A stretch of 64,000 nucleotides of DNA from an uncultured Planctomycetia bacterium (GTDB lineage: Bacteria; Omnitrophota; Gorgyraeia; 2-02-FULL-51-18): the NCBI GenBank assembly GCA_964642015.1, contig CAZXLF010000001.1, positions 43,946 to 107,945 of the forward strand, read 5' to 3'. Positions 1-54,162 of the stretch are shown here, piece by piece. The notes under the pieces were generated by a model. It made no database searches. It was given only the letters and a program-made list of their open reading frames with translations, and was not told the DNA's origin. The number at the start of each line of letters is the position of its first letter. Position 1 is the first letter of the stretch. A program made the translations under genes and the position numbers.

Positions 1-751
1 CCGGCAGCCAGTTATGAAAAGGGAATTGAGCCGATTTTCCCATGACGCCTGTAAAAACAAGCAGACCCAAAATGGTCAAAAGTTTGGGTGAAAAAGCGTG
101 CTGCAATGAGCTTGCGGTCAAATCCACAAAATTCAACGAGCCAAAAAGGATAAAAATAAGGATTACACCCAGATAAAATCCCAGATCGCCAAGACGGTTG
201 ATCACAAATGCTTTTCGCGCGGCGGTCGCGGCACTTGGTTTCTCAAACCAGAATCCGATTAGTAAATACGAGGTGAGACCCACAAGCTCCCAGAAAAGGA
301 AGGTCTGCAGAAGATTATTTGACAGCACCAGGCCTGTCATCGAGAACGAAAAGAAACTTAAGAATCCAAAATAACGTGCCCGCGAATGATCTTCATTCAT
401 ATAATACACAGAGAATAACTGAACGAAGAATGAAATAACGGTGACGAGCCAGATCATCAGAAGATTCAACCGATCCATCAGAAAGCCGACTACTAAGGTA
501 TAATTTTGGATCGTGGTATGCGGCCAGAGCGGACCATCGGAGACGTGAAGCCAGGGATAAATAAACTGACTTGGCAGACCCTCACCATTCAAATGGCTTA
601 AGAAAAGTTTGGAACTGGCGGAAGCCGCTGTCAGAGCGCACAACACACCGATGATCGGGGCGATTTTTTTCAATGCTTTCGGTGTGATCTGAATCAATAG
701 AAACGCGGTTAAAGGCGCCAACTGAATTACCCAGAGAAGTTTTAAGTCCAT
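1..751 (-). CDS. nuoL: NADH-quinone oxidoreductase subunit L, N-terminal part (gene continues past window start)
   Basis: Reverse complement of 749-751 is ATG, directly after the nuoK stop. Translation MDLKLLWVIQ...FLFWELVGLTSYLLIGFW...AARKAFVINRLGDLGF carries hallmark NuoL/MrpA motifs. It is absent from the ORF track because there is no stop in the window. Confidence 0.8.
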   Translation of the reverse strand, partial: MDLKLLWVIQLAPLTAFLLIQITPKALKKIAPIIGVLCALTAASASSKLFLSHLNGEGLPSQFIYPWLHVSDGPLWPHTTIQNYTLVVGFLMDRLNLLMIWLVTVISFFVQLFSVYYMNEDHSRARYFGFLSFFSFSMTGLVLSNNLLQTFLFWELVGLTSYLLIGFWFEKPSAATAARKAFVINRLGDLGFYLGVILIFILFGSLNFVDLTASSLQHAFSPKLLTILGLLVFTGVMGKSAQFPFHNWLP

Positions 752-752
752 A

Positions 753-1067
753 TCACCCTTTCAGGTCTTTCGCTTCTTCAATGTTAATGGAATCTCTCCG
801 CCGATAGAGCAGCAGGATCAAACTTAGGCCGATGCATACTTCCGCGGCTGCCAATGCGATGATGAATACGACAAATACTTGACCAAGTGCTTTATTCGCA
901 AGGCAAAATTTGTTGAATGCCAGAAAATTGATACTTGCGGAGTTCAGGATAAGTTCCAGTGAAATCAGCATGGCCACAAGATTTCTTCTGAAAAGCAGGC
1001 CAAAAACTCCGATGGAAAACAGCCCCGCAGAAATGAATAAGTAGCTTTGGAGAGACTGGCTGATCAT
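753..1067 (-). CDS. nuoK: NADH-quinone oxidoreductase subunit K
   Basis: 104-aa three-helix membrane protein with NuoK-like sequence (LELILNSASINFLAF). It sits in the conserved J-K-L order and overlaps nuoJ by 4 nt. Confidence 0.85.
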   Translation of the reverse strand: MISQSLQSYLFISAGLFSIGVFGLLFRRNLVAMLISLELILNSASINFLAFNKFCLANKALGQVFVVFIIALAAAEVCIGLSLILLLYRRRDSINIEEAKDLKG

Positions 1068-1561
1068 GCAGAGTCCTTTGTGTTCGAGATCACCAACGCT
1101 CCGATAATAGCTACCAAAAGGATCAAAGAAACAACTTCGAAGGGTAATAAACTGTTACCCAAGAACATCCTACCGATCGCGCGGATCGAATAATCGCCTT
1201 CAATGGAAACTTGAGGCCACTGGGTTTTACGTATAACTTTCGTAAGTCCTACAAATAACGCGGTCCCGATCACCAAAGATCTGAGGATTTTTATCCCATT
1301 CCTTTTTTCGTGCTTCTGGAACATGGGCCGTGAAAGCATGATCGCGAAAATGATTGCGATAGAAATAGCGCCGATATAGATGATCACTTCCATGATCGCG
1401 AGGAACTCGCTGTTGAGATAGATGAAAAGACCGGCAACGCAGAAGAGGCAAAGGATAAGGGCTAGGGCGTTATAAAATACGTTCTTAAGCCATACTGCTA
1501 ATAAAGCGGCGATCAAAAGAATCGATGCTAAACCGACAAATACGATATCTGCGATGATCAT
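1064..1561 (-). CDS. nuoJ: NADH-quinone oxidoreductase subunit J
   Basis: 165-aa polytopic membrane protein located between nuoI and nuoK. Its 4-nt overlaps with both neighbours indicate translational coupling. Confidence 0.75.
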   Translation of the reverse strand: MIIADIVFVGLASILLIAALLAVWLKNVFYNALALILCLFCVAGLFIYLNSEFLAIMEVIIYIGAISIAIIFAIMLSRPMFQKHEKRNGIKILRSLVIGTALFVGLTKVIRKTQWPQVSIEGDYSIRAIGRMFLGNSLLPFEVVSLILLVAIIGALVISNTKDSA

Positions 1562-2106
1562 GCTTTAGGCGGCTCCGTCGCGCTTGTGGATGGTTTCGCT
1601 GCCGGAGCAGCGGCTGTTGCAGGAGCAGTTTGCCCTGGAGCTAAGACCGGAATCTTTGTCAGCGGTGTGCCGCGTTTCTCGAACGGCTCTAAAAGATCCA
1701 TGATCAATTCTTTTTGAGTCAGCGAAACCATGTCGTAATTCGGATCATCATGTTTCAGTGCGTCCGTAGGGCAGACGTCTATGCACAGACTGCATAGACT
1801 GCAAAGCATGTAGTTGACTTTGAAATCTGTCAACACTCTTTTGCCGTCAATAGCGCTTTTTTGAGCTTCCAGTGACATGCAGCGCGACGGGCAGGTTTTG
1901 ATGCAGGCGTTACAGGCGATACATTTGTGATCGCCCGTTTTTTCATCCACCACGAACGAGATCGGTCCTTTGAAGCGTTTCATCGGGATTCGTTCTTTGG
2001 GATAGATCACGGTGACCGGCTTCTTGAACGCGTAGCGGATCGTGATGCTCATTCCTACGATCAAGCTCCAGGCACCGTCGATAATGTCTTTGAAATATTT
2101 CATCAT
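1558..2106 (-). CDS. nuoI: NADH-quinone oxidoreductase subunit I (2x[4Fe-4S]) with Ala/Pro-rich C-terminal tail
   Basis: Two CxxCxxCxxxCP ferredoxin motifs (CIACNACIKTCP, CSLCSLCIDVCP). The likely start is at MMKYFKD (2106) rather than the ORF-track start at 2157, which overlaps nuoH. The C-terminal tail is PGQTAPATAAAPAAKPSTSATEPPKA. Confidence 0.85.
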   Translation of the reverse strand: MMKYFKDIIDGAWSLIVGMSITIRYAFKKPVTVIYPKERIPMKRFKGPISFVVDEKTGDHKCIACNACIKTCPSRCMSLEAQKSAIDGKRVLTDFKVNYMLCSLCSLCIDVCPTDALKHDDPNYDMVSLTQKELIMDLLEPFEKRGTPLTKIPVLAPGQTAPATAAAPAAKPSTSATEPPKA

Positions 2107-2107
2107 T

Positions 2108-3088
2108 TTATTTGAAGAAATGCTGGAATTGTAACATACACGCTGTAATGAAAACATTAAGAATCGCGAATGGGATCAATATTTTCCACGCGAATGCCAT
2201 TAATTGGTCGCTGCGCAGCCGCGGAAATGACCAGCGGATCCACATGATCACGAACACTAACGCATAAACCTTGATTAAAAACCATACGATACCGGGCAAA
2301 AATGGTCCACGCCAACCACCTAAGAAAAGCGTCGCTGAGATCGCCGATGAAACAAAGATGGCCGTATATTCTCCAAGAAAGAAAAGCGCAAAACGCATTC
2401 CGGAATACTCAGTATGGAATCCAGCGACGAGTTCTGACTCTGCTTCGGGAATATCAAAAGGTGCGCGGTTAGCTTCAGCGAGGCTTGCGCATAAAAATAT
2501 AAGGAACGCAAGCGGTTGCAGTATGATAAACCAGCTATCCTTTTGAGCGGCGACCAGTTCGGTTGTTTTGAGAGTGCCGGCGGTCATCACGACTCCCATC
2601 GTTGATAAAAGAAGGGGAATTTCATAAGAAATATTTTGAGCCACAGCGCGCATAGAGCCTAGTAGCGCATATTTATTATTCGATGACCAACCGGCTATGA
2701 ATATGCCGATGAAGCTGATATTGGTTAATGAAAACACGAAGAGAAAGCCCACGTTCAGATCGCGGATGATCCAGTGTTTGCTAAAAGGCATGATCAAGAA
2801 GGCCGATAAAACGGGCGCAAATACTAGCACCGGCGCCAGCCAATAACAAAATTTATCCGATTCTTTTGGAAATGACAGTTCTTTACTGATCAATTTGATC
2901 GCGTCTGCGGCGGTTTGAAGAAGACCGTGAATGCCGACATGCAACGGGCCACGGCGAAGCTGAATGCGCGCCGAGACTTTTCTTTCCATCCAAACAAGAA
3001 ACAGTGCATTTACTGAAACAAAAAGAACGACCAATGTTCCAAGAACGATAATTCTTATGATTTCTGTTAGGACGTTATTCATGTTCAA
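2108..3088 (-). CDS. nuoH: NADH-quinone oxidoreductase subunit H
   Basis: 326-aa polytopic membrane protein with NuoH/ND1 signature regions (EYTAIFVSS, GGWRGPF). It has a TTG start at 3088, or ATG at 3082. Confidence 0.9.
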   Translation of the reverse strand: MNMNNVLTEIIRIIVLGTLVVLFVSVNALFLVWMERKVSARIQLRRGPLHVGIHGLLQTAADAIKLISKELSFPKESDKFCYWLAPVLVFAPVLSAFLIMPFSKHWIIRDLNVGFLFVFSLTNISFIGIFIAGWSSNNKYALLGSMRAVAQNISYEIPLLLSTMGVVMTAGTLKTTELVAAQKDSWFIILQPLAFLIFLCASLAEANRAPFDIPEAESELVAGFHTEYSGMRFALFFLGEYTAIFVSSAISATLFLGGWRGPFLPGIVWFLIKVYALVFVIMWIRWSFPRLRSDQLMAFAWKILIPFAILNVFITACMLQFQHFFK

Positions 3089-3092
3089 TCTT

Positions 3093-3153
3093 CAGAAAAC
3101 AGACGTCAGAGAACAGATATTGCTTTAATCTGTACGCTGTCTTCTGTCTTCTG
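3093..3153. repeat. Imperfect hairpin of tandem heptamers, (CAGNNNN)3CAG - 13-nt loop - (CTGNNNN)3CTG, in the nuoCD-nuoH intergenic region
   Basis: The arm cagaaaacagacgtcagagaacag (3093-3116) matches the reverse complement of ctgtacgctgtcttctgtcttctg (3130-3153) at 18 of 24 positions. Confidence 0.5.
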
Positions 3154-3172
3154 AACACTTTCTTTAAATTAA

Positions 3173-4810
3173 TCAACGGTCGATCTCCGGCAACACGATA
3201 TCGATGCTTCCGAGCACCGCGACAACATCGGAAACCAGGCATCCGGGAAGCATGTCGATCATAGCGTTTAGATTTGAAAATGACGGTGTGCGAAGTTTCA
3301 TTCGGTAAGGATTTAAAGAGCCGTCGCTTACCAGGCAAATTCCGAAAGAACCGCGAGCTGATTCCACAGCAGAATAATACTCACCTTTAGGCACGTTTTT
3401 TGGCAGTTTTCCAAGCGTTACTTCGCCGGTTGGTATCTTATCGATGACCTGCGAAACGATTTTTAAGCTTTCTTCCATTTCCCGCGTGCGAATTTTGTAT
3501 CGTGAATAAACGTCTCCGCCTGTTTCAGTAGGGATGTTAAAATCAAGCTGAGGATAGATTGAATAGGGCTCGTCTCTTCTTAGATCGAACGGGATTCCGC
3601 TACCTCTCAAAGACGGGCCTGTCACACTGTATTTTAATGCGGTTTCTTTCGTGATGAGACCGAGTCCTTGGGTGCGCTTCCTGAAAATAATATTTTTTGT
3701 GACGAGCGCGTCATAATCGCGCAAGCGCTTCTTGAAATGGGGCATAAATTCTTTGATCGCCGGGATCATTTCAGCGGGAATATCTTTGTCCAGACCGCCG
3801 AAGCGGAAATAATCGTAGGTCAAACGCTCGCCGGTGGCCATTTCAAGGATGTCCAGTATTTTTTCCCGGTCATCGAAACAGTAAAAAAACGGCGTGAAAC
3901 CTCCGAGGTCCAGCAGAAAAGTACCCATCCACAAAAGATGTGATGCAATGCGATTAAGTTCTGTTGTGAGAACGCGAATGTATTCGACTCGCGGGGGAGG
4001 TTGGATACCCATAGCTTTTTCGATCAATACTGCATAGCCAAAGTTGTAACTCATCGCACCGACATAGTCGAGGCGTCCCATGTTAGGCCAGCAGGCCAGA
4101 TAATTCTGTATCTCCATCATTTTTTCATGATGACGATGGGAATAGCCGATGACCGGCTGGGCATCGATGACCCGTTCGCCGTCCAGATGAAGAAGTATTC
4201 TCAAGACCCCATGTGTGCTCGGGTGCTGAGGACCTAAATTTAGGTAATAATCTTTGCTGTTTTTCTTGTCTTGAATAACAACAGCATCCTTATATTGAGC
4301 GCTGAAACCTTCGGCGTCCTCTTCGATAAGCTTGAGCGATTGCGCGACATCAGCGCCTTTTGGCTCGCCTTTAAAGCTTTTGAGCAACGGAAATATGTCA
4401 GAGCTCTCTGGCAAAAGGAGGCGTTTGAGATTCGGATGATCGATGAATTTCACGCCAAACATGTCATAGATCTCGCGTTCTAGCCAATCAGCGGACCGAT
4501 AAATGGAGGAAATGCTGGGCGCAGTGTTTGATTCTTTTGGAACAAGGATCTTTACGCAGGATCTTTGCGTAGCTCCCCATTGATTAAAGTGGTAAACGAT
4601 CTCAAAACATTCAACAAAATCTACGGCTGTCAGAGATTCGAGAAAAAAGCCCTGGCTTAAATATTCTTTTGCAACATCACGGATCTTGGATTGGGGAACG
4701 ATCGCTTCGAATGAAATGCCGGAAGTCTTTAGATCTTTTTCATTAAATTCGTCAGGTTTTACAGTTTCCAGGAGCCAGCTTTTAATGTTTTTCTCTGTTA
4801 GAGTAGGCAT
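3173..4810 (-). CDS. nuoCD: Fused NADH-quinone oxidoreductase subunit C/D (30 kDa + 49 kDa)
   Basis: The N-terminal half is NuoC-like (DWLEREIYDMFGVKFIDHPNLKRLL). The C-terminal half is NuoD-like (LNLGPQHPSTHGVLRL...RLDYVGAMS...ATGERLTYDY). The start is at MPTLTEK (4810), not the upstream ORF-track Met. Confidence 0.85.
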   Translation of the reverse strand: MPTLTEKNIKSWLLETVKPDEFNEKDLKTSGISFEAIVPQSKIRDVAKEYLSQGFFLESLTAVDFVECFEIVYHFNQWGATQRSCVKILVPKESNTAPSISSIYRSADWLEREIYDMFGVKFIDHPNLKRLLLPESSDIFPLLKSFKGEPKGADVAQSLKLIEEDAEGFSAQYKDAVVIQDKKNSKDYYLNLGPQHPSTHGVLRILLHLDGERVIDAQPVIGYSHRHHEKMMEIQNYLACWPNMGRLDYVGAMSYNFGYAVLIEKAMGIQPPPRVEYIRVLTTELNRIASHLLWMGTFLLDLGGFTPFFYCFDDREKILDILEMATGERLTYDYFRFGGLDKDIPAEMIPAIKEFMPHFKKRLRDYDALVTKNIIFRKRTQGLGLITKETALKYSVTGPSLRGSGIPFDLRRDEPYSIYPQLDFNIPTETGGDVYSRYKIRTREMEESLKIVSQVIDKIPTGEVTLGKLPKNVPKGEYYSAVESARGSFGICLVSDGSLNPYRMKLRTPSFSNLNAMIDMLPGCLVSDVVAVLGSIDIVLPEIDR

Positions 4811-4817
4811 GGTTTGA

Positions 4818-5504
4818 TCAGACTTTCGCTTCTTGAGGAGCGGGAGTCGGCGGTGTGGGGGGTGCCGGTGGTTTTCTGAATTCTGCGCGCGAAATGGCAT
4901 TCTTGTATTCTGCGGGACGATTATCTTGTGAGTCTTTTACAGAAGCCGGTGACATGACACCTTGAGTTTTTCCTGAGAGAATTTGTTTTTGGAGTTCAAG
5001 GACCCCGGCGATCAATGCCTCGGGCCTTGGCGGACAGCCGGGAACATACACATTTACCGGAATGATCTTGTCGATACCTTCAAGAATGCCGTATTGGCCG
5101 GGATATTTGAAAGGGCCGCCGGCAGTCGCGCAGCCTCCAAGAGCAATGACATATTTAGGCGAAGGCATTTGATCATATAAAGTCTTGATACATGGGACCA
5201 TTTTTCTTGAAATAGTTCCGGCCACGATCATCAGATCTGCCTGTCGCGGCGACGGACGAAATACGCCGAACCCAAAACGGTCCATATCAAAACGTGCCGC
5301 GCCTCCGGCCATCAGTTCAATCGCACAGCAGGCCAAGCCGAATGTTAGCGGCCATAAAGAATTGGCTCTTGCTAAATTTAATACGTCTTCAACACGAAAA
5401 AGATTCACTAAACCTGGTGCGGGAGATTGAGTGTTTAGATAATTGGGGTCTTTGTTGATCTCAAGATTGGGATTTATTTCCATGCAAATAATCCTTTTTT
5501 CCAT
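4818..5504 (-). CDS. nuoB: NADH-quinone oxidoreductase subunit B (N2 [4Fe-4S]) with Pro-rich C-terminal extension
   Basis: [10 protein letters not shown]...[10 protein letters not shown]...PGCPPRP motifs. The tail is [17 protein letters not shown]. Confidence 0.85.
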
Positions 5505-5839
5505 GCATACAAAATTGCAAATGACAGTAACGCCAAAAAGATCCCAATCTCAAATAACGCTGCAAAACTCACTACCTCTTTATATATAACGAGGACCGGG
5601 AAAAGAAAAGCAGCTTCCACATCAAAGGCCAAGAAAATTAACGCGAAAAGATAATAGTTAATATCAAATTGAATCCACGCGCCGCCGATGGGCACTTCGC
5701 CGCTTTCATAAGGATCGCTGGCGCGGGAACCACGGCTTTTAGGGCTGATCAGGAGAGGAAGGAACGTGTTGACCACGACAAAACCAATGCCGATGATCAG
5801 GAATCCGAGAACATAAGAATAATCATGTAATAAAGACAT
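5474..5839 (-). CDS. nuoA: NADH-quinone oxidoreductase subunit A
   Basis: 121-aa protein with the NuoA motif [19 protein letters not shown]. It is the first gene of the minus-strand nuo operon. Confidence 0.85.
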
Positions 5840-6239
5840 TAAAGCAAAGCTCCGAACGTTTATAGCGCAACAGTATACAAAAAAGATAATGGCAAGTCAA
5901 CGCAGTTGGTTTTGATGGTTTTAGCGGAACGAAAAATTTTGGAATTTGTTGCAAAAGAGAATAAAAGCTAAGACAGGGCACGTAAAAAAGAGCATTTTCT
6001 ATCGCACAAGCCTTGACCACTATCTGGGTTCGTTCTTAGTGAATCGGAAAACTTGGATTTTTACAATAAAACACCTCAAATTTTTCAATTTAATATTTCA
6101 TAATATATTGAAATATAAAGAGTTATAGTTTATTTAAAGCGGTCCGAATATTTGTATTTTGACAGTATGGTCATGTATACTTTTGTTAAAATACGCTCAT
6201 GTTCATTTTGGTTCCACACTCTATAAATATTAATAGACT
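5840..6239. promoter_or_regulatory. AT-rich divergent intergenic region between the minus-strand nuo operon and the giant gene; promoters expected
   Basis: 400 bp of high AT content. It contains TTGACA (6159-6164), an extended -10-like TGtTAAAAT (6184-6192) and TATAAAT (6223-6229) only 11 nt upstream of the giant-gene ATG. No clear SD precedes that ATG. Confidence 0.3.
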
Positions 6240-6323
6240 ATGGCAAGAAAACACAAACAAATCATAAGATCCCTCTCTTTGCTGTTGGCGGTTTCTTTTT
6301 TTGCGTCGGAACTTGCTTATGCA
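6240..6323 (+). other. Sec-type signal peptide of the giant protein (MARKHKQIIRSLSLLLAVSFFASELAYA|AP)
   Basis: Basic n-region, hydrophobic h-region and an A-Y-A signal-peptidase I site. Confidence 0.6.
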
Positions 6324-9300
6324 GCACCTATTGATGCGCAGGCAGTGAGAGAAGTTCCGATACAAATCATCGCTCAAGATCCCACGCGTTTTGAAGCACC
6401 TGTTTCTTTTACAACTCTCAAGGAAATTCATAAAGGCAGCGAAAATACTTTGATCATTCATATTCAGGATGCGCATGCGAATTATAGCGGTCAGGAAAAT
6501 TTAGCTAACGCACTGGATGAGCTCATGACAAAGTACAAGATCAGTTTAGTTCTTGTCGAAGGCGGGACCAAAGACGATACGTTGACTCCCATTAAAAAAG
6601 TCGCATCACCCTTGGTTTGGAAAAAAGTTGCGAAGAAATTTCTTGGCGAGGGAAAGATCACAGGCGAAGAGTACCTTAATCTGATCTCTGATCATCCGAT
6701 GAAGATCATGGGGATCGAGGATAAAGCGCTTTATATGTCTAGCTTGAACGCTTATAAAGACCTGGCCGATAAAAGGGAAACAACCTTGGGCTATCTTAAG
6801 AAGATCCAAGCCGCAGTGGATAAAGTTAAGAAAAAAGTTTATCCAGTGGAACTTTTGGATTATGAGAAAGAAAAAAGTAAAACAAATACTGTGCTTAACG
6901 GAACACCGGCGTTCGAGAAAAATTTTGAGATTAATTTCAGGGGATTAATGAAACTGATTGCCGATATTCAAAATGCGGACAGCCATGGAGAGAATTTCCT
7001 GGCACCTTTTCCCGATCTTCAAAAATTAAAAGCCATTCAAGAAAAAGAGAGATCGATTGATTTTGACGCGGCCAATCTGGAGCAGGCGGCTTTGATAGAA
7101 GAGATCCAAAAACGAGGGGGAATTGAAGAGTTCAAAGATTATCTGAAGAAGCTTGGTCAGATGAAGGATCAAAGAGCTTGTCAATTTGCCTACTTTCAAA
7201 ATACTTTAAATATAGCCAAAAAAAAGGGGATCTCGATAGAAAAGTATCCCGATCTGATCATTTATGGCGAATACCTAAAGAATTTTCAAGAATTGGATTT
7301 AGACCTTGTGTTAGATCAGTTGGAGCGTGCCGAGGACCAGGTTTACGTAAGGCTTTTTCAGCGCAATGCCAAATTTCAGAACGACGCTCGCCTAGTCCGG
7401 TCAATAGACCGTTATATAGGTCTTCTTGATACTGCATATCGGATCAAGATGTCGACCAAGGAATTTAACCTCTTCAAAGTTAATGAACCGGATTTTACCA
7501 CTCCCAGTTATTTGGCTTTTCTAAATCGTAAGCTAGCCGAGTATGGATATTTTCAAGACCTGATCCCGTATCAAACAAAAGAGACAGGCAATCCGCTTGA
7601 AGAAGGAAAAAAAGCGTTGGAGGCGTTTTATGATTCCGTGAATCAAAGAGATATGGCATTTATCAAAAATACCGAAAGAATTTTGAAAAATGAAAACCAA
7701 CAAGTAGCGGTGCTTATTTCGGGAGGTTATCATACGCCGCATCTTAAGAAACTTTTCAAAGAAAAAAACTATTCCTACGCGGTCCTCACCCCTATCATTA
7801 CTTCTGAAACCGATCAGTCTAAATATGAAAAAATATTGCTCGAACCGATCAAAAAGGAATCTAAGGTTGTTGAGAATGTCCAAGGCGAGCGCAAGTCACA
7901 GGATAAATCGTTGAGCGATCTGGAGGAAGATTTGATCAAGCTTAAGAAGCAGTCTGATCAAGTCAGGCAAACGGAATTAGTGGAATCCGGTAGCCGACTG
8001 GCTGAGGTGTTGAAAGACATTGAGGCTAACGGAGCAGGTGAAGAAGCGGTTGCTGCGGCAAGTTTAAATCTTTTAAAAAATAATCCACGATCGGCAAGTG
8101 AGCCAGTTCCGGCTATGGCGGATACAAAACTCGCAAGCGCACCGCAAAATATTCCTTCCGGCGCACGTCTCTCATCTCAAAACGAAAATACCGAACGGCC
8201 AGACTCACGAGAGGTGAGAGGGACATTGCTTTTGGTTGAGAAAAGTTTTCTGTTGCCGAACTGGCTCGGTCTTTTTCTGACCAAAATACTGTTTCAATTC
8301 TATGCCAAGCGTAATTTTGGATTGATCAGGTGGAATACCAATACGGAGATTATCTGTCTGCCTTGGTCTGACCAGAAAATACGCGATACGCATCCAGAAT
8401 ATCATCGGAAGTTGTGGCAAGAATGGAAAGATGCGCACGGCCGCTATGACGATTGGAATGTGACGGTCAATCTGGTGAGCCGTTTCATGCCGACGCCTGC
8501 GGCAGTAGCGGTCTCGATGGAAGAAAAAAATATCAATGTTTTCATCAAAATGTCGCTATGGGATCGTCGAGATCTTTTTGGGCATATATTTGACAAAGCA
8601 GACGAATTTATCCAGCAAAGCGAATCTTCTCATGCCCAGGGTTCGCGGCTTGCGTTGAATCGTTTCAAGGCGCCTGTCTATATTGACGAGAAGGACTTTG
8701 ATAATGCGAACAGGTCATATCTTGATCGTCACCGAGATCAGTGGCAATGGATCCGAGAAAATATAATGCCGTACCTGATTGAACGGGCCCTAAAGAGGGT
8801 CCATGGATCTGAAAAACCAAGACTTGATGTGCTTGTGTTAGGCGCAAGCACCGGAGAAGAATTAGCTAGGACATTTTATGAAGTCACTACGGATCTTTCC
8901 GCCAGAGGTTATGATCCTAATCAGTGGATCTTGATGATTCATGGTTTTGATTCAGACCGGAATGTAGTTTCCGAAGGACAGAAAAGATTAAGAGGCCAGT
9001 CACCTTTCATTGGTGCGCGGCCCTTTCAAACAGAAGCGCAACTGGAGGATTATGCGGGGCGTGTCGTTTCACTGCTGAATCAATATCGTGAGAAAGTAGC
9101 AGAGAGTTTATTTTTGCACCAAAGAAATGTTCTGGATATCGCGCCGCTGAAGAATAGCTTCCCGAACGCGGACATTATTCTTGTGAATCATCTGATGAGG
9201 ATCTTGAAAAATAATCAGCGATTGGCGCTTATTCAGAATTTGAGTTTTGAATGGAAAGATGCGCTGCTTGCGATAGGTGATATGCCTAAATTCGAAAATG

Positions 9301-12300
9301 ATTGGCAGTCCCGAATGCAAAATCATATTTTGGAAAAATTGCCTCAGACCTCTACAAAAGAAACCCAGTATTTCTTTGGATTGCCGCAAGGCTATGTTGA
9401 AGAAAAAACTCATCCTGAGGGCGCGCGGTTAGCTGAGGAAAATAAGATACAATTTGTAACCGACAAAACTCAATATCCAAGACTGATCGTCAGTGTCGAA
9501 TCTTTAATAAGTCAATATGAAAGCGTTGACAAAAATGTCTCTGAAATGCTGCCAAATATTCAAAGCGATCTGCAAAACCCGCTTGCGGTATGGGTGGTCC
9601 GGGATGCTTTTAACCGCATCATCGGATTTAAAACTCTGAAAAAACCCCAATTTATCCAAGGCCTGACACAAGAAGCTCAAGATTTGATCAATGCGGGAGA
9701 AGGAATTGTTACCGGAGGATTTGTTGTGATGCCTGAAGCTCAAAGGCAAGGCCTTGGAAAACGTCTTATGGAGGAAAGCTTCCGGTACATTCAGGGTCTG
9801 GAGAAGCAAAATATACGCTACTATCTTGCCAGCATCGCATCTGACAATGCAGCATCATTCCGCGCTATTCACAGCGTTGCCGCTCAAATGGGTTTGACGA
9901 TGTACGGCCCATTCGTAAATGAAGGAAGCCGTCAATATGAATATTTGATAGATGTTTTTCCTGACAAAGCGCTTGGCGGACAAGCGGCCAATTTAATACA
10001 GCGTATGAATGCACTTCCGTCGAGTACAAAGGAAGCATGGGATCAGGCACAGCAAATAGCTGCTGGTAAAAGCGGCGGCTCCGCAACAGGCGCTCGTCTG
10101 ACCGGCACTTCAATCCAATGGGGAGACCAAGCGCCTATGCCTAATGCGGCTGCACACTCTTTGGCTTTTAAATCCGAAGATGAGATCGCCAAATTTATTC
10201 CCATCTGGCCTTTCGGTCCCCGAGTAACAGTCCGCAAAAATTCAGACACTCACATAGCGCTCTCCATTCGAGACAAGCGATTTAACATGATGACGATCGA
10301 ATTAAAACAAGATCCGTCAGATGAACATATGGTTTTTCTGGGGCATGGGCGGCCTGTTTATTCGGATCAGAGCTTATTACCTTCCGGGACGTCGACGGCA
10401 TCCTCAAATGCAGAGGCTTCAAAGCAGATTTTGTCACCTTTGATCAGAAATTGGATGAACAAATTTCTGCCCGATTGGTTGCTATCGAGAGGCTACAACA
10501 AGATCAAAGTTCAAATTCTATTTGATGATTCTCCGGAATTCTTTGATCGATTGGGCTTTAGAAGGCTGGACGACATGCATATGGTAAAAGACATCACACC
10601 TTCCCAAGGAGCTAGATTGGCGAAATCGACGATTGCGGGAGTGGAGTTGCCATTTGTTTTTTCCGATGCTGTCGGAGCCAATGGATTGTACGAGAGCATT
10701 ATATCGGATGCTAACGATGTGGCCGAGCAATTGCATAAATACATAGCCGAAACTTCCCGCACTAACCGAGAGATCGTGGATACTTCCACGTTAGCCATGA
10801 GTTCCGTAGCGCAAAGCGACCAAGTATTGCCGACGGTCTATATCGGAGATTTGCATGGAAGACTCGATGTTTTGTACGGCATTTTAAATGACGTGGTCGT
10901 CATTGATGGCAAAAAAATGAAAATCATCGAAGCGCTTTTAAACCGTCAGATTAAACTGCGTCAAGTGGGCGATAGTATCCACCCCGCCACAAGTAATAAT
11001 TATGAAAATAAAGAGGAACATTTAAGGAGTTTTGCGACTTACGTTTTTCTGATCACTTTGAAGAACCTTCGGCCAGATCTGGTGGATATTGTGATCGGTA
11101 ACCATGAAAATTCTGTGCTAAGCCGAGCGACTGTAGGTAAAAAAGTGCAGGACCGGTTGTTAAACTTAGGTGCATTTTTTAAAGAATCGATTGAGGATAG
11201 AAATAGCTGGCGAGGAAATGATTGGACGCAGATCCAATTCATGGACGACCAAAATCAAATGGTGACCTACAGCGCTGCCGAGACCGGCCAGCTATTGTAT
11301 GCCTTGTTTGCCAGAAGCGTAGAAGACCTCCCCGTCTATGTAAGGGATAAAACTTTTGACTCGACAATAGGAATGCTACACGCCGAAGTTCCATCAACAG
11401 ACACTGTTTTTACTTTGACTGATATGAAGGATGTATTGAGCAAGCCCTATTTGGAAGCGCATGGCATTGATCCTGATTATCTGAGGGACGCCCCTAATCA
11501 GCTTTATCAGCAGTTGCTATGGAACCGGAACTTTCAATATGACCCCCCGACAGGAGTGAAGTACTTAAACGCTTTTGCGGGTGATCCGCAAAAAGGAGCC
11601 GGGCTTATTTTTTCGGGCCACACACCTCCTTCGCATTTTTCTGATATGCCCGCAGAAGGAGTGTTGGTCTTGAAAGATCAGGCGGTCCCGCTTTTTGTCA
11701 CCATCAAAGATCCTCAAAGCGAAGCCAAACAGATCATTGGCGATGCCAGCGGAGATTACGACAGGGTCGGATACCTTTTGGTTGATGCCAGAAAAACTTT
11801 ACCATCTAATCCGCTCGATTTAAAAGCCCCTGATGATACTTCAGCTTTCAGAATTTTGGACCTTCAAGGCGCGTCTTATGTTTCAAGGCCTTTCGATATT
11901 GGCGCAGTACGCGCCGCAATTCCGGCATACGTCCCTACACCTGCCGATGCCAGGCAAGATCCGCGCATTTTTCGTGCGGGCACGCTTTGGTTCAAGATCC
12001 GGCTTCTAGGTGATGGTAAAATAATTTTGATCGACCCAGCTAGCAATGCTCCTTATGTTTCAACCGTCGCATCGGAAGTTTTCCCTGGCCATCCCTATCG
12101 AATAGGCAGAAATGTGGATTTTGAGGGCACGTTCCCCAATATCAATACTGTCTCCAGAACGCATGCGGAAATTATCAAGGATGGAGATGAATACAAGCTG
12201 GTGGATACCAATTCCAGCGCCGGAACTTTTGTAGGCGCTAAGCAGATCGTGAATCAAAATCCGGAAGTCTTGAATTTTGGCCCGCAGGGCGCCCGGTTGG

Positions 12301-15300
12301 CAATAGAACGGAATGAGAAAAGAGAAGATCTTGCTCGACGTCAAGCGGTGGACCGGATCATTGGTGATGTCACGGATTACATTAAATTCGAAAATGAAAT
12401 GAATAAGATCATCGATAAGATCAACCAGGGGATTCCGTTGAGCCAAACGGATGTGATCCGGTTGCAAGATAAATTAGCTTATCGTCTGCAGCTCAAAAAT
12501 TCTCTCGTGACGTTAAGAATAAAGGTGCATCAAGGCGATTATATCGTGGCTTTCAATCAACTCGGCCTTAAAACTCTGAACGATCTTCTCGGCACACCTG
12601 GCAATGACCGGGTCATTGCCAAGAGGCAGAATCTATTGATCAAGCTGATGACAGAAAATGGCTTGATTTCCTCTGGACGTAGCGAACGTTTAGAAAAAAA
12701 TTATAAGCAGGATAAATTCGTGATCCGGTCTTCAATCATCAGTAAACTCGGGATCGAAGAGGTCCAGAGAAGGTTGGATCTGGTATCAAAGGCTCTATCT
12801 GATCGGATGTCGAAATTTTTGATAGATGAGTACGGTAAAGAAAAAATGGTCAATTTTAAGTTTCAAACCTTGTATGGGATCAGCAATAAGGTTGAGAACG
12901 AAGATGACCAGGCCAAGATCACGTCAGACATTCAAGCGCTGCAGGCTTCAAAGATGGGCAGACGTCTTTTTGAAGAAAAACAAGTGAACGGTGAGCTTAT
13001 CTACGGAGCGAAGTTCAATCAAAATCAATTTGATGCACTGCAGCGCAGAGCTGCTTCTTTGGCGGAAGATTTAGGGATAACGCCTCGTCATTTTTTAAGC
13101 GAGATAGAAATGTCTGCGGTAAGAGGGATTTCCGAGGTGCAGATCCGGCAGGCGGTTTCAGACAAACGGATGCTCGAAAGAGATCTAAAGATAAAAACTT
13201 ACCTTGATATCATTGATCTGTTCGATTATCCGAAGACTTGGCCCGGGGCTGTCAGCGAGCGCACCGTTCGCGTGGATGAGATCCAGGCTTTGGTCGAGCT
13301 GTTTTTGAAAAATGTCAAACCGCGCGCGCCTCCGGACCAGCAGTGGTCAGTTGCAATACAAAAAGCTTTGGCTATTCTCAAAAGGAACTCAAAAAATCCT
13401 TCCATTACATCCGGAGAAGCGTTCCATGCTTATGCATCCGGGATCTCCGCCGCTGATCAGGAAAAAGGAAATGTCCACAATCATCGCTTTGTCGCCGTTG
13501 ACGTCATTGGATTTTGGGCGAGCATTCAAAGAAATCTGGGGAGAGCTCACGCGGCGTATTTTGATGCGATGCAACGAAATGCGCCGTCCGTTCAACGCCG
13601 TCAGGTACTTACTGACGAGGTATTGAAGGCTGACGACAAAGTGAAGAAGATGATCGCCGGTAAGATCAGACAGATCGACGGTTTCGTGAAGGCTGTCGGA
13701 GTTGAGCCTGAGAAAATGACATTGAACGACGGCTCTAAGGTATCAGCATTTTTCCAAGAAGGCGGCGACGAGATCGTTTTTATGATCCCGCCCAGTTTTG
13801 ATCTCAAGAAGACCAACGAACTTTTAGCCAAGATCCGTGCGCGTGGAATGGCCGCAGAAATCAGCTTTCAAGATCGTCCTGAACAGTCAACAGTGGCGCT
13901 CGGCCTTGCCCTTACCGAAATTAGAGCGGATGCTTTCGGAAGACCTTTCCAGAGCTCTCAAGCCGTTCAGGCGATCGATGCTTTTGTTAACGCCCAAAGC
14001 GCTGACGGATTGGCAAAGGAAATCGAAAAAGCGGGCGAGAAAGGTTTTGTTTCCTACGAGATCGTCAATCAGAATCAAAAAGCGAAACTTGTCCGCGAAG
14101 GAAAAATGACTGAGGGGAAGGACCGTGCATGGTTTGTTTATCGGCAAGCAGGCGCAGCCTCGCGGCGAGAGTTTTACGCAGATTACGCGAATAAAGTTCT
14201 AGCCGGAGCTCGTTTGGCATTCAAAGACTCCATGTCACAAGCGAATGAGCATGTCCAAAAAGCGCTTGAGATCATTAGAACAGCAGACCTGTTCTCAAGA
14301 ACGGATGTTGAAACTGCGCTAGAACAGATAGTTGAACAATTATCTCGAGTCGAGCAAATTCTTGCAGGCCAGAATGTTGATGAATCTGATCTGCTCCCAA
14401 TTCAGGCAAGACAAGATCTGGTGCAGGCCTTCTTGACCGCTATTTCGGTAATGAGAGACATCGATAAACTTACCGGGCTTTCGCTTGATCAGCGTTTGGA
14501 GCTTATCGGACAGTTAGCTAGAAGCGGATACAGCATTAATGATGCTTATAACGCTCTCTACGGAAGGCCAATAGGCGCTCGCCTGGCATCCCTGAGAGCG
14601 AAGTTGGTCGTTGCTTTTGCAGCTCTTGCAGGTGTCATTGCATTGATCTCCTTTGCGCCGAGACAGGCGCCCATCAAAGCCATAAAGCCTGCTCAGATCG
14701 AACGCATTGAGTCTAAACCTGCGCCTCAGCAGACAGAATCGCAAAAGACGATTACAGAAAAAGAACAGAAACCCGCAGACTTGCAAATATTGAAACAACA
14801 TGCGGAAGAACTTAAGAAACAATCCGATGATTTAAAGAAACAATCCAAAGTCCTTGAAAACAAAGCCATTTATCTCCAGAAAGAAAAAGAGCGGTTTCAA
14901 GAGAGTTTCAATTACCTTCAAACGGTTTATCTGCAGCAAATGCAAGTAAGCTGGTCTCTTGTCGGCGGGTTGAACCCAGAATCCAAGGTTGGGACAACGT
15001 TTGTTGATACGACCATCAAATTATTAGGAGGAGAAACTCTCAGAGTCCGTCAGGAACATGGCGTCTATCGTTTTCCAGAAGGATTTAACGTCCAAGATGT
15101 AAAAAGCAACGCAGCTTTTTCGCTGAATGAGAAAGGTATGATAACGGATCAATATGAAAATCTGGATAGCTTACCGGCTGAGATCCGTAAGGATCTGGAT
15201 GATATCAAGAAAGGATTTGCGTATCGCGGTCCGCAGTTCAGCGATCTGGCTTTGAAGCTGAATTCGGCTCTGGGTACTACCAATTTTAAAGCCAGTCATA

Positions 15301-18300
15301 TCCAGGAAATGCAGGGCCTTATCAAAGCCGGCTCATCTGTGGTTCAAGCTATTCAGAGCGTGGCCGATAAAGAGAGGATCACGATCAATACTGAAAATCT
15401 GAAGTCTGTGCCTGTCGAGCGTTTCGGAGCGTTGCTTCCGCACGCCGGCAGAGTCTATGCAAGGTATTTCGATTATATGATCGTTGATAAAAATCGCCAG
15501 ATTGTTGCGGCTTTTCGCAGAAAAAATTTGGAGAAAGGCGCCTCATTCAGAGATTTAGAAGTATTTCCCTCTTCTTTTAAAGATGAGAATCCGCTGCTTT
15601 TCGGAAGTTTTTTCAGCTATGACGAAAAATTTCCTGCTTCGATAGGGCGGACCCCGACGGATAAACGGGGTTATGAAATCGCCCAGAACAGCAATAATGA
15701 ATATCTTAAAACCTCTGAAGGAGTGCCTCTTTATTGGTTCAATGAGGATAAAGAAACGGGAGAGTTATCTGTATTAGACCGCGGCCGATACGCGCTAGTG
15801 TTCTTATCAGGAGTACGGCATCCGCTTATTCCGGATAAAAAAGGACCCATTAGCTATGATAACGGCACTCAGGTGACACATTTTAAAGTTTTGCCTGATT
15901 TATTTATCATCTCGGGATCACAAAGACTTCTTTGGACCAACCATTCAACTCTTGAAGGCCGAACAGTCGAGAGATATGAGAAGGCTTTGAGGGAGGGGGC
16001 GTGGTTTGCTCCTATAAAGTCCCGTAAGATGGCAGGGTGGAACGTACGTCCGCAGAATCAAGCTTTATACCCGTATTTTGAATCCCAAGAGAGCGACAAA
16101 GATAAGATCAAAGAAGAGACCGCTGAATTTGCGCGGAGAGAAGCCGAATTAAGACAGGCAATAGATAATGAGTCAAAAAAGCCTAATCCAGATTCTGAAA
16201 CATTGAAACTTCTGCAAAATGAGCTGAAAAGGCTAGGCACGCAGCATTTTATGATAGATGCAGATGGTTATATGCATGCAAGAACTCTGCCGTGGAAGCA
16301 TCTGCCGGGGGAGATGGATCGTATTGGGAATGAGCTCAGGGAAGTCGAGGGACAGAAAAAGGAAGCAGACGCTAACGAGGCAAAGATTAATGAACAGATT
16401 CAGGAGGCTTTGCAACAAATAGAAAAAATAGAAAAGGGCGCACTTCCTAATCCTTCACAAGTTGCTCCGGCCGGAGCGCGCCTTGCGGAAACACCAGGCT
16501 TCCTTTCTGAAAAATTGTTGGTCGAAGTAAAGAAAATAAATTCGCTCCGAGATCTCGATAATATCAATCAGTGGTTATCTTATGAAATCGCACAAAATCT
16601 GATCACCCCTGAACAGGTGGTAAATGCGTTGGCAAGTATTATCGATGATCATGGCAATGATGAACTCCGAGGGCCTTTTAAAGATATTGCTGATGCGGTT
16701 CAGAAATTGGTCAATGATCTGGAATCTGAGATGCCCGGATCTTTTAAAGATCAGTTGCACCGCATCTTGTTCAGCGATAAGAATTCGGTGAAAGAGATCA
16801 TGACTGTTATCAATCCGGATGGAATGCACATGAGGCCTTCTTATGGCGTAGCCCGATTATCATCAAAAATTAAAGATGAATTGAGTCTCGATGTTTATAT
16901 TCAAAATCTGAACAGGCATCAAAACGAGATAACGCATGCAAGCGAATCACTGTCAATGCAGGCTTTGGGAATTGAGCAGGGAGCGCAGATAAGGATCATC
17001 GTAACAAAGAGCGCTGATAAGCAATTATTGGCGAACGTTATTCAGATCATAAAAGATTTCCTTTTGGATGTCGCTGCACAACAAAATCCAGAGAGCCAAT
17101 TGGAGCCCTATCTAAATAGGATAAAAAATCTTGGCCAAACATCCAATAACGGCGCACGGCTTGCAGAGGCGGAGAACCAGGGAGCGATCTCCAAGGTAGT
17201 TCAATCTTTCTGGCGATCATATCGACGGGCTACTTATAAATTTTTACAAGCGCCGTTGCGCGTAGATGATCTGATCATTGCCGTCAACATCATGGATCTT
17301 GGCGCAGAGATCGAAAATGGCAGGGTGGTCACCAAAGACGCATTGAAAAAATTAAGGGAACTGATCCCTTCACTGAAGAAAATGGGCGCCGGTAAGGTTT
17401 ATATTTACGGTGGACTTTATCAGATGAGCGGTATTTCAAAAGGACTGCACTCAGACCCGGGTTTAAAACCCAGAACCGAGAATGGAGCCACTGTGGTCGC
17501 CGGCTATGACACCAAAAAAGAGACCGTAGACGGTATTGAATTCACCGATCGTTTTGGCAATCCTTTCTCAATTATGGGCATGGAAAATTTTAATCCTGAA
17601 CTTTCCAGCGGAAATGCCGAGCAGGATTACGCGAAAACCGTAGAGGCTCTGAAAAAAGAAGGCATTGAAGTTGTCGCGGATCTGGTTCCTTGGCTTTCGC
17701 CCAGCGCGATCAACGAGACGAATTACAAAGCAACATTTTATAGGGAGCTTAGCGGTGGATTGAATGACGAATTTCGAAGTGTGTCCGAAGAAAATAAAGT
17801 GAAATGGCTTGACGAAAAGGTCTTATCCAACAATCCTGGCTATGCCGCTGTTCGTATCAAAGAAAGAAATAATCAAGGCGCGCTTCAAGAAAGGGTCATT
17901 TTGGTCAAGCGTCTCGGGTTTTTTGGAATAGACAGCGGTGACCAAGTCATATTAAATCCTTTTCATCCGTGGACGCAGCAATATTATACGGATGCGGTCA
18001 ATAAGCAATTAAGTTTGGGAGTCAAAAATCTGCGCATTGATCTCGGCCATTTGGTCTTGAAGCGCCACATTCTCGGCTATTTTGATGAAATGCGAACAAA
18101 ATTATCCTCGGAAGGAAAAAGCATGGAAGATTGGCTCAGAGAAGCCGGTACTGATATCCAGCCTGGAGAAAGTTTTGACAGCTGGTTTCACAGATCTCCC
18201 GAAGTGTGGCGCGAAGTGATGGACAGGATCAGCGCCGATAAAACCCATGGCTATGATTATAAAGACATCAACCTCATCACTGAATCATATGATTCAAGTC

Positions 18301-21300
18301 CGAATGGAGACCAAAACGAGCTTTTTTTGCAGGGGGTGAAGAGCGGATATCAGATCAATTTCTTTAACGCTTTGTACGGGGTTCTTCGGAATGGCTGGTC
18401 GGCCAGGACTTTGAGAGATGCGGTCCAATTTGTGGTCAATATAAAACCTAGAGGCCTTATTTTCCCGACTAACTTTGATCAAACGCGCTTAGCAAGAATG
18501 GGACGAACCAGTGCCGGTGCGCTCCCGCTTAGCCTTGTGCTGGCGCATCTGGGAGTGCCTACGATGATCGATCTGGCGGATATCATGGGACTTCAGGGCC
18601 ACATGATCCCTATCCCCGGAGGAAATCACGACCCGAACGATGCGCATGCTCATCCCTATGTTACTTCAGATGATCTTAAGATGCGCAGAGATTTTGATTC
18701 ATTCAAGAGGGCGTTCGAAGAGAACAGTTTCATAACACTCTTCGACGAATTTCGAGGTAATGTCAGGACTGCGGAAGAAAAATATATCCAGATCCTCAAT
18801 AACAGCAATCTGGACCGTTACTTCACTTTGGCGTGGAAAGACGAGAGAAATGATTGGACTATTTTTATCTATGATACCAGGCCTTCGGAAAACAAGGGCG
18901 CTGAAAAGATCGAGTTGCCGTTTTCTGGAGATGAAACAGGATTCGCGGCCGCTGATTACGAAGCCTATGACTCTAAGACCGGAAAACAACTTGAAATATC
19001 TCGTTGGGAGCCCAGCAGATCCGATTCTGCGCCAATTGTACAAATAAATTTTGGGACCGAAGATCAGGGTTCCCAGTATCGGTTTATTCAATTGGCAAGA
19101 ACGCGCTATGTCCGTGAAGAAAGAAGACCGGTTGTTGAGCCATTGGATCAGGCCAGAGCGATGCTGACCCATTATTTGCCCGGTCAAAGATTGACGGAGC
19201 TTTCTAGGATTGTTGAAGAAGACCGTTTTGATCCGTTCCGAAATCAGGCTTTGCTTTTTGCGCTGCTGGATGAATATTTCGGTGTCAGAGCAAGGGCAGC
19301 GAACGTGATTGCCGGACGCAATTTCGGGCGCAGCGTGGCTGTCCCAGTGCGGGAGCTTTTATCTCATCTCGAAGATCCGCTTCAGCCGATCCAATTTTTC
19401 AATCAACAGCCGAAAATGATCAGGGACGTTGTTTTTGATCCGAAGCGAGGCGCAAGGAATTTGCGCTACGCGCTTTTATTTTCATTGGGAAAAATGTTGG
19501 CGGAACATCCTTCGAGAAACGAACAGATGTACATTGACCACTTGAGGGCTGAGCTTCGAAGGCAATTACAAAGAGAGACTCAAACATGGGATCAAAATAA
19601 GGATACTGAACTTCAACAGGTCGCAGCGGACCGCGATATGGCGCTAGGCCAAAATGAAAAAATGAGCCTGCTTGAAGTCTTGAGAACGGTCGTGTTGCGC
19701 AGCCGTAATTTTTCGGATGCAGAGAAAGATAAATTTCAATGGGTACGCGAGTCAGTGAATCAAATTTACCCCGAAACACAGGGAGATGAGGTATCCGACA
19801 TCATTTATAAACCTTACAGCGCCGCTGAAAACGGCGCACGGTTGGCTAAAGAAAAACCGACAGGAAGTATGTGGCATGATACCGATCTTCATGCGATTCA
19901 GGATTTTGTTAAAAAGAACAAAGGGCCTAAGCTTATTTTGATCTCAGGGATCGGTCCCGGTGTGGGAAAATCCACGCTTTTGAGACAAATGAGAGATGGA
20001 AATATCGATATCGGTCTGACCCGCCGCGATGAAAATTATTTTGCGGAAGGCAAGCAATTTGCCGACCTTTACAATGATTTTAGAACGGGCGAGCAAACTT
20101 CCGGAATATCGGATTATTCAAATCTACCGCTCCGTTTGCTGAGGTCAGACTATGATAAGACTCTTTTATCCAAGCCCTTGGCTTTTACCCATGAGATCGC
20201 GGTCGGCAGCTTTTTGACGTTTGTGTATGATCACGGGAAGGAACTTTTCTCCCCAAGGAACGACCGTCTCGTCGCGATAGAAGACTTTGGGACACATGGC
20301 TGGACCTCTGATCAATTGCAATGGCAGGTGTTGGCAAAAGAAAAGAATAAGTTGCCGGAGAAATTAGCCAACGCCTTCTTGAACATTTCGATCCTAAAAA
20401 TATATATCGATAATGACCCGCTCGATGCTGCCAAGCGCCGCATGGCATTCGAATCCACAACGATGCGTCAGGAAAGAGACGTCTACATTTCCCGGTCATC
20501 CGGCGCCAGATTGGCAAATGGAAATAATGTTCGATTTACTTTGATCGGCGGTGATCTGCCCGGAAGCGGAAACGCGATCCTGTTGAGATTGTCCGGAAAC
20601 AAAGCGGTGCTTTTGGATGCCGGCATTAAGTCCGATAAAAGACGAGTGTTAGAACAAGCGCTTGGGGCTGATAAATTAGCTGCCGTGATCATCACGCATG
20701 CACATTTGGATCATTCTGCCGGGGCTCCGTGGCTCCATCATTTTTATCCGGATGTTCCTATAGTCGTTTCTGAAACAACAGCCCGCATTTTGCCGCCGCT
20801 CTGGGACGATAATCTGCAATTTCAGGCCGGTGAATCGTGGAAAAGCACCAGGCACCATAATGCCGAGACAATGAGAGCGCTTGCGAAATTGCCGGTCGGT
20901 CAATGGTTCAAAGTAGACGACGATCTAAAAATCTATTTGAGCCATGCTGAACATGTGCCGGGCGCGGTCTCATTATTTTTAGCGACACGGAACGGTAACG
21001 TTCTTTATACCGGTGATACGTCCACCTCGGGGCAATTGACATTAGTGCCCAACGAGATTCTGCCGCCTCAAAAAGAAGCCGACACGCTGATCGTTGAAAC
21101 GACGAATGGCGGTCGAAATTTCGGACCGATCGAGGACAGAAGAGAAGAACTTATTCGTGAAGTCAAAGAAACTTTTGAAAAAGGCGGTAAGGTCCTGATA
21201 CCCGCTTTTGCGGTCGGTCGTTCAACGGAAGTCGCGATGATCCTGCAGAAAGCGATGGAAGAAGGAAAGCTTCCTCGCGCTACGATTTATTTGGATGGTA

Positions 21301-52215: not shown

Positions 52216-52259
52216 GCGGTTTTTGGTTAGTGGTTTGCGCAAACCGAACACCGAACACC
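52216..52259. repeat. nuoD-nuoE intergenic element containing a perfect 14-bp palindrome GGTTTGCGCAAACC (52232-52245)
   Basis: Read directly from the sequence. The palindrome is flanked by ggtttttggttagt and gaacaccgaacacc. Confidence 0.5.
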
Positions 52260-52274
52260 TAAAACAAAATCTTT

Positions 52275-52748: not shown

Positions 52749-52815
52749 TGTGCCAGCACACCAACGCACCAGGCACCAGTTAGTTTTTTCCGGTGCTCTA
52801 GTGCTCAGGTGCTCA
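52749..52815. repeat. nuoE-nuoF junction hairpin: (GCACCAG-type)x3-4 arm, 12-nt loop, (GGTGCTCN)x3 arm
   Basis: tgtgccagcacaccaacgcaccaggcaccag / ttagttttttcc / ggtgctctagtgctcaggtgctca. The 3' arm overlaps the nuoF GTG start region. Confidence 0.5.
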
Positions 52816-54147: not shown

Positions 54148-54162
54148 AGCGCTCATTAGAAG

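Follow-up and report, generated by a model that had tools for sequence, protein, structure and literature searches.

FHA domains dock specifically on phosphothreonine (pThr), and PPP enzymes hydrolyze phosphoserine (pSer) and pThr. In Arabidopsis, the kinase-associated protein phosphatase KAPP carries out FHA-guided dephosphorylation through a PP2C domain. A bacterial FHA-PP2C protein, DRA0334, is found in Deinococcus (bioRxiv 10.64898/2026.01.23.701218), and the dgcB operon of Bdellovibrio encodes the FHA-GGDEF protein DgcB together with a putative calcineurin-like phosphatase, Bd0740 (PMC6733907). Here, we describe two modules of a giant protein of 14,047 amino acids (aa), each composed of a PPP-type, calcineurin-like phosphatase and an FHA domain, encoded in a 64,000-nucleotide stretch of an Omnitrophota genome (GenBank assembly GCA_964642015.1, contig CAZXLF010000001.1, positions 43,946 to 107,945; referred to below as the window). 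Like KAPP and DRA0334, these modules combine, on a single polypeptide, a Ser/Thr phosphatase with an FHA domain that binds pThr, and they share the logic of docking followed by dephosphorylation; unlike them, they use a PPP (PF00149) rather than a PPM/PP2C phosphatase, carry the FHA domain C-terminal to it, and are part of a 14,047-aa protein. The Bdellovibrio system also pairs an FHA-dependent pThr switch functionally with a calcineurin-like phosphatase, but as separate operon-encoded proteins that are not fused. The domain families and the principle of an FHA-guided phosphatase are already known; the new elements are the phosphatase subfamily, which has a GDxxHP motif, the PPP-type partner of the FHA domain, and the incorporation of both as discrete modules into giant proteins of an apparently undescribed family. 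A limited literature search, with most subscription-journal papers outside its scope, did not find a PPP-FHA fusion, which may nevertheless be described already.

Giant Omnitrophota proteins are themselves known from metagenomes. Parts of the work by West-Roberts et al. (bioRxiv 10.1101/2023.11.21.568195) describe them as multidomain proteins including Ser/Thr phosphatases, for which posttranslational cleavage has been proposed with unknown cut points, and as having many transmembrane segments, C39/S8 peptidases, SecA-like parts, and carbohydrate-binding repeats. As far as those parts go, the protein in the window resembles them as a giant metagenomic bacterial open reading frame (ORF) with many domains; the examined passages on giant Omnitrophota genes, from two papers, mention neither the junction peptide described below nor a PPP-FHA module. 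By analogy with KAPP, we consider it probable, at roughly 60%, that the PPP-FHA modules are pThr-directed Ser/Thr phosphatase "erasers," possibly released by processing at the junctions between modules.

Two phosphatase-FHA modules in one reading frame

The giant ORF occupies positions 6240 to 48383 of the window on the plus strand, where all features of the protein given below also lie. It encodes a signal-peptide-like N terminus and 39 modules of 28 to 1088 aa, punctuated by 38 junction peptides, and both phosphatase-FHA copies fall within this uninterrupted frame. Copy 1 is module 7 (10623 to 12302; ORF aa 1462 to 2021, 560 aa), directly preceded by a GARLA junction (10608 to 10622) and made up of a helical lead, a PPP-type metallophosphatase domain of the A subtype (10815 to 11882), an FHA domain (11955 to 12275), and the closing GARLA (12288 to 12302). 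The Pfam core of this FHA domain covers 12096 to 12275; its start was placed by eye at the RIFRAG..F[KR] stretch that is conserved 5' of the FHA core in the corresponding modules of two relatives, P0002 and P0003. Copy 2 is module 29 (37104 to 38915; ORF aa 10289 to 10892, 604 aa), whose upstream and downstream junctions lie at 37089 and 38901. It contains two N-terminal helices, a PPP-type metallophosphatase domain of the B subtype (37221 to 38108), a beta-rich spacer with low model confidence and only weak, subthreshold Ig-like matches (38109 to 38708), an FHA core with a complete pThr-binding signature (38709 to 38882), and the closing GARLA (38901 to 38915). Common to both is the succession of helical lead, PPP-type metallophosphatase, beta-rich spacer, and FHA domain, the last ending 9 to 21 residues before the next junction. 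An earlier note on this stretch had proposed a calcineurin-like phosphatase with a C-terminal FHA domain in one GARLA-bounded unit for both copies, and this architecture was confirmed by Pfam, BLASTP, a family profile, and, for copy 2, Foldseek. The intervals in that note are accurate but start at motif I and stop with the FHA domain, short of the complete modules.

The motifs GD[LV]HG, GNHE or ADHE, and FSGHTPP are found in both copies where the earlier note had placed them. Copy 1 reads GDLHG (10845 to 10859), GDSIHP (10968 to 10985), GNHE (11097 to 11108), MLHAE (11373 to 11387), LWNR (11517 to 11528), and FSGHTPP (11610 to 11630); copy 2 reads GDVHG (37275 to 37289), GDLLHP (37368 to 37385), ADHE (37485 to 37496), FLHGD (37692 to 37706), LWGR (37800 to 37811), and FSGHTPP (37884 to 37904). 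All six metal ligands, in canonical form, and the catalytic His are present in copy 1, and the set of copy 2 is complete except for one Asn-to-Asp change. Across the 18-sequence family alignment A3 (copy 2 numbering), GDxHG, GDxxHP, the His of (N/D)HE, the motif IV His, and the GH of GHTP are invariant, as is the Trp of LWxR, with its Arg nearly so; in the A-subtype alignment A6, the invariant positions are D22, H24, D63, N106, H107, H199, R248, and H279. The distal His ligands of motifs IV and V correspond to the invariant columns H160 and H225 of A3 and H199 and H279 of A6. In motif II, the bridging Asp is kept (GDSIHP and GDLLHP), and the DRG of GDxxDRG is replaced by an invariant His-Pro throughout the subfamily.

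Pfam detects the FHA domain in copy 1 (3.3e-10, 40.7 bits) and copy 2 (5.4e-18, 65.6 bits; gathering cut-off, 20.7 bits for both) and Metallophos PF00149 in copy 2 (7.8e-07, 30.1 bits; cut-off, 21.5 bits), so the search for PF00149 and PF00498 suggested in the earlier note succeeded directly for three of the four domains. Copy 1 is assigned to PF00149 by homology, because its nearest relatives pass the same threshold: P0002 (32% identity over the full module) with 30.1 bits and P0003 (31%) with 26.9 bits. The metal-binding residue set is present and the profile hits are significant, through homology in the case of the copy 1 Metallophos domain. When compared with the PDB, the family profile matches PPP Ser/Thr phosphatases only (BSU1, 1.3e-14; PP1-type, 1.4e-13; calcineurin; PP5). 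The modules share with PP1, PP2A, calcineurin, PP5, BSU1, lambda phosphatase, and bacterial PPP-like enzymes the fold, GDxHG, the GD of motif II, GNHE, the motif IV His, and the GH of motif V, and differ from them in GDxxHP, in long insertions, in an identity of only 12 to 18% to solved PPP structures, and in belonging to a rare subfamily.

The fold of copy 2 is likewise that of a PPP enzyme. Residues 1 to 335 of its AlphaFold2 model are mostly confident, most 10-residue blocks having a predicted local distance difference test (pLDDT) score of 80 to 96, with dips to 54 to 69 near residues 91 to 100, 131 to 150, and 211 to 230. All 46 Foldseek matches of this model in the PDB at E ≤ 1e-3 are PPP phosphatases, led by PP5 (3.5e-11, TM score of about 0.68) and including PP1, PP2A, calcineurin, RDGC, and lambda phosphatase; no ApaH or diesterase is among them. 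The FHA sequences match the FHA domains of Rv1747, GarA, EmbR, and KAPP in the PDB, the KAPP match (1mzk) being with copy 2. The copy 2 FHA domain has the signature IGR, VSGHHA, and SRNGT, and that of copy 1 keeps the Gly-Arg (IGR) and Ser-x-x-His (VSRTHA) elements, with the conserved Asn changed to Ala (SSAGT); the orthologous FHA domains of P0002 and P0003 read SRNGT. Judged from sequence, both units are PPP-type, calcineurin-like phosphatases with a C-terminal FHA domain in one GARLA-bounded module, and their catalytic and pThr-binding residues are essentially intact.

Ancestry and recurrence of the fusion

Modules 7 and 29 are collinear in the order of their parts and match each other by BLASTP in the phosphatase part (E = 4e-11, 351 residues, 23% identity) and in the FHA part (E = 2e-4); these values and the Pfam scores put their similarity far beyond chance. 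Did one copy arise from the other within the giant gene? Copy 1 is 32% identical to the P0002 module over its full length including the FHA domain (565 aa; E = 1e-65) and 31% identical to the P0003 module, again over the full length with FHA (E = 1e-61), compared to only E = 1e-8 with copy 2 in the same comparison set. Copy 2 is ~29 to 30% identical to the stand-alone proteins P0004 to P0010 (E down to 6e-28) and 31% identical to the P0016 module. A recent internal duplication is ruled out, since each copy is closer to modules of other organisms than to its sister. With only 23% identity between them, the copies are best described, on these comparisons, as two old coexisting subtypes, and the duplication claimed in the earlier note holds as an ancient paralogy and not as a recent event. 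One further paralogous pair, and no other, is detected by BLASTP in the giant protein: the methyltransferase-like modules 20 and 33 (30162 to 31349 and 42909 to 43742; 25% identity, E = 4e-11).

The phosphatase subfamily is rare: when a profile built from the non-FHA parts of modules 7 and 29 was run with HMMER against 1.84 billion protein representatives, only 69 relatives emerged, many of them inside giants. Members occur as stand-alone enzymes of ~350 to 600 aa and as modules of other giant proteins. A word-indexed homologue search retrieved nothing with module 29 and only three marginal Metallophos proteins with a 15-sequence alignment. Scanning 185,579 species-representative genomes with module 29 gave only unrelated FHA domains in metagenome-assembled genomes of Treponema and Cloacimonadaceae, so that neither the source genome nor a close relative is represented in this set, and a metagenome scan with the combined A and B alignment gave only two loci of the stand-alone type. 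The giant P0001 (7186 aa) has five tandem-type copies of the subfamily at residues ~650 to 3400, all with GDLQG or GDIQG, that is, with the motif I His ligand changed to Gln, and with no FHA domain detected.

An iterative FHA profile combined with Pfam revealed a Metallophos domain followed by an FHA domain in five other proteins. Two of these, P0002 and P0003, are giants with RSELR junctions; P0016, also a giant, has GARLA junctions, reads ADHE, and carries an FHA domain whose end lies ~20 to 25 residues before the junction; and P0044 (980 aa) and P0065 (1351 aa) are not giants. In P0017, the order is reversed and the FHA domain falls below the Pfam threshold. By these sequence matches, the Metallophos-FHA fusion is a repeatedly retained design, and since it recurs in several uncultivated lineages, a selected role in the control of Ser/Thr phosphorylation can be argued.

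Proposed function of the modules

In the proposed mechanism, the FHA domain would dock the module on a pThr epitope, such as one on a Ser/Thr kinase that has phosphorylated itself or on the substrates of that kinase. The PPP domain, tethered there, would then strip neighboring pSer and pThr phosphates. Such a pThr-directed eraser would bring Ser/Thr kinase signaling to an end, and the two copies, being old subtypes, probably have different targets. More speculatively, the junction peptides may be processing recognition sites at which the modules would be freed as ~60-kDa proteins. The site of action would be a cytoplasm, because sister modules need ATP, S-adenosylmethionine, acetyl coenzyme A, and phosphoenolpyruvate (PEP), and possibly the cytoplasm of another cell, given the export-like signal at the N terminus. 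Such delivery to another cell is conceivable in view of the signal-like N-terminal helix and the toxin-like mix of activities.

Several findings weigh against an eraser of this kind. The phosphate-binding Arg of the classical GDxxDRG motif is absent across the subfamily. Copy 1 has no direct PF00149 hit in Pfam even at E ≤ 1, and a profile of the A subtype alone, although it matches PPPs exclusively in the PDB, does so only at E of ~1e-3. The copy 1 FHA domain has lost the conserved Asn through which the backbone of the peptide is contacted, and in motif III of copy 2 the Asn metal ligand is replaced by Asp, with the His kept. The spacer and FHA parts of the copy 2 model have low confidence because the alignment did not span them. 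Nor was a partner kinase detected: neither regular expressions nor Pfam at E ≤ 1 found a Ser/Thr kinase module in the 14,047-aa protein. As to release from the giant, cleavage at the junctions is putative, though plausible, Pfam finds no peptidase family in any module, and the N-terminal module that might do the processing has only a weak assignment to a hydrolase superfamily.

Do these enzymes act on proteins at all? They could instead be Ap4A or nucleotide hydrolases or phosphodiesterases, similar to ApaH or PrpE, that act on small molecules or nucleic acid ends, with the FHA domain serving a regulatory or oligomerizing role. The loss of the Arg of DRG, which protein-directed PPPs use to bind phosphate, would fit such enzymes, as would the broad PF00149 assignment, the only one made by Pfam, and the stand-alone members, which have no FHA domain and, at the two loci inspected, no kinase neighbors. 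However, the significant profile and fold matches are exclusively to protein Ser/Thr phosphatases, the 46 Foldseek matches included, and the Arg of LWxR, which lambda phosphatase also has, is retained. Repeated fusion to a pThr reader across lineages is also most simply explained by phosphoprotein substrates, and we regard activity on small molecules as unlikely.

The residue changes raise another question, namely, whether one or both modules are impaired pseudo-domains that serve as phospho-epitope traps or scaffolds with a structural or decoy role in the giant. Besides ADHE for GNHE in copy 2 and SSAGT for SxNGT in the copy 1 FHA domain, ligand changes occur in related giants (GDLQG in the five copies of P0001 and ADNHA in P0015). 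A Fic/Doc-family module of the 14,047-aa protein (45984 to 46637; Pfam, 3.2e-09) is Doc-like in its NKR and has Gln in place of the catalytic His (QPFYDGNKR). However, the catalytic His is unchanged in either phosphatase copy, and at most one of the six metal ligands differs: copy 1 keeps them all, and copy 2 has at the sixth position Asp, a residue that can itself bind metal. The copy 2 FHA domain has the full pThr signature. The Asn-to-Asp change of ADHE is also present in the closest giant relative, P0016, and in P0014, P0031, P0039, and P0048, and because of this recurrence it is presumably a tolerated functional variant. Loss of function in these modules therefore seems improbable to us, and pThr-directed phosphatases remain our preferred explanation.

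Junction peptides and the giant-protein family

A regular-expression scan of the giant protein finds 38 G-[ASTV]-R-L sites, nearly all of them G-A-R-L-A/S, with the general form [SAQNT]-G-A-R-L-[AS]; GARL is observed 34 times compared to 0.46 expected from shuffles. The third codon positions of the junctions vary freely, Arg is encoded by both CGN and AGA, and Leu is encoded by both CTN and TTG. This synonymous variation rules out an origin as a DNA-level repeat or cassette and indicates that the junction is conserved as a peptide, not as DNA. Related giants, compared for P0001, P0002, P0003, P0016, P0027, and P0034 and loci L010 and L011, have recurrent pentapeptides of their own: ASSLG in P0001 (16 times), RSELR in P0002, P0003, and P0034, RAELR in P0027, and GARLA in P0016. 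A motif that stays constant along one protein yet changes from lineage to lineage suggests a lineage-specific recognition, cleavage, or docking site that coevolves with a cognate factor.

What could cut at such sites? MARTX and large clostridial toxins are multieffector polyproteins whose internal protease releases the effectors by cutting after Leu. The giant in the window resembles them as a very large, exported-looking protein with many unrelated enzyme modules and a short recurring peptide in which Leu is followed by a small residue. It differs from them in three respects: searches detected neither a cysteine protease domain nor RTX repeats nor type I secretion genes next to it; the junction is far more regular (38 copies) and lineage specific; and cleavage is only putative. 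A candidate for processing is the conserved N-terminal module (6240 to 8003), which comprises a signal or anchor helix and, on weak evidence, a hydrolase of the Tiki/ChaN superfamily. Thirteen large proteins found through the phosphatase share this module, and most of them end in A-[AS]-A. In the eight aligned members, QDxH...E...RD...GGxH is invariant around a long helical insert, and the AlphaFold model has a mean pLDDT of 80. The signals of relationship are weak (ChaN PF04187 in two of the eight members at E of ~1e-3, DUF5694 at E = 0.05, and EreC by Foldseek at E = 0.33), and a profile search of the PDB and Foldseek gave nothing significant. To judge from these conserved residues, the module is possibly a processing hydrolase of the Tiki/ChaN/erythromycin esterase superfamily, and its reading as a Tiki/TraB-like protease is a hypothesis only. 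A plasmid collection contained no relative of it.

The modules might also act in cis within an intact giant that forms a signaling or assembly platform. There, the FHA domains would bind phosphosites on its sister modules, GARLA would serve simply as a conserved linker or docking motif, and the protein would be neither cut nor exported. The lack of a detectable protease domain would be expected here, and phosphotransfer parts are present: two HPr (phosphotransferase system phosphocarrier) domains (16488 to 17165 and 43743 to 44123) and a PEP-utilizing-enzyme (Enzyme I-like) domain (24732 to 27995), each a separate module, together with P-loop modules and weak HATPase-like modules. The relatives P0015 and P0020 also carry canonical Hanks-type Ser/Thr kinase modules (HRDIKPSN...DFG and HLDIKPGN) within the one polypeptide. 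However, a motif that is invariant within the protein, different between lineages, and synonymously variable points to recognition by a specific coevolving factor; a passive linker would require none. The shortest "modules" also look like spacer peptides between two junctions and not like domains; one of 28 aa (37020 to 37103) lies between GVRLA (37005) and GARLA (37089) directly 5' of module 29, and another, of 57 aa, lies at 8004 to 8174. Action in cis is possible but, on this evidence, doubtful.

Most of the 39 modules have no Pfam match. The matches that were obtained include a GNAT acetyltransferase, a weak CheR-like methyltransferase and further weak methyltransferases, and, at 20517 to 22850, strong hits to metallo-beta-lactamase (4.9e-21), beta-CASP (8.8e-17), and RMMBL (9.8e-11) in the architecture of an RNase J/CPSF-like nuclease. 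The HPr and PEP-utilizing-enzyme modules are phosphotransfer-chain parts in an unexpected setting. A hydropathy scan identifies a single strongly hydrophobic, transmembrane-like stretch besides the N terminus (14574 to 14660; ORF aa ~2782 to 2805), which starts module 10 right after a junction peptide. The giant gene is chromosomal and lies between two NADH dehydrogenase (nuo, NADH:quinone oxidoreductase) clusters in divergent orientation, at 750 to 5840 on the minus strand and 48472 to 56900 on the plus strand; relatives likewise sit amid housekeeping genes. In the downstream cluster, a 343-aa TPR protein is inserted between nuoC and nuoD. The only identical NuoD sequences retrieved were on short Logan contigs (runs SRR12313477, SRR12313479, and SRR12313480), and an Rfam scan of the window gave no match.

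A literature search returned nothing relevant on the junction motif or on bacterial polyproteins of this type, and giant multi-enzyme proteins punctuated by junction peptides apparently form an undescribed family. This family, with its lineage-specific junctions, is more novel than the phosphatase-FHA finding itself. We tentatively raise the idea of an effector polyprotein: a precursor as long as 14,000 aa would be exported and cut at the junctions particular to its lineage (GARLA here; ASSLG or RSELR in others), perhaps by the Tiki-like N-terminal module that it carries. Dozens of separate enzymes would result, including two differently targeted PPP-FHA phosphatases that would remove Ser/Thr phosphorylation in the cell of a host or prey. 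The PPP-FHA modules provide a testable enzymatic handle on the puzzle of giant proteins. Should the junctions prove to be sites of cleavage, the cut points so far lacking for giant bacterial proteins would be at hand, and these proteins would define a polyprotein strategy that is otherwise characteristic of viruses and a small number of toxins.

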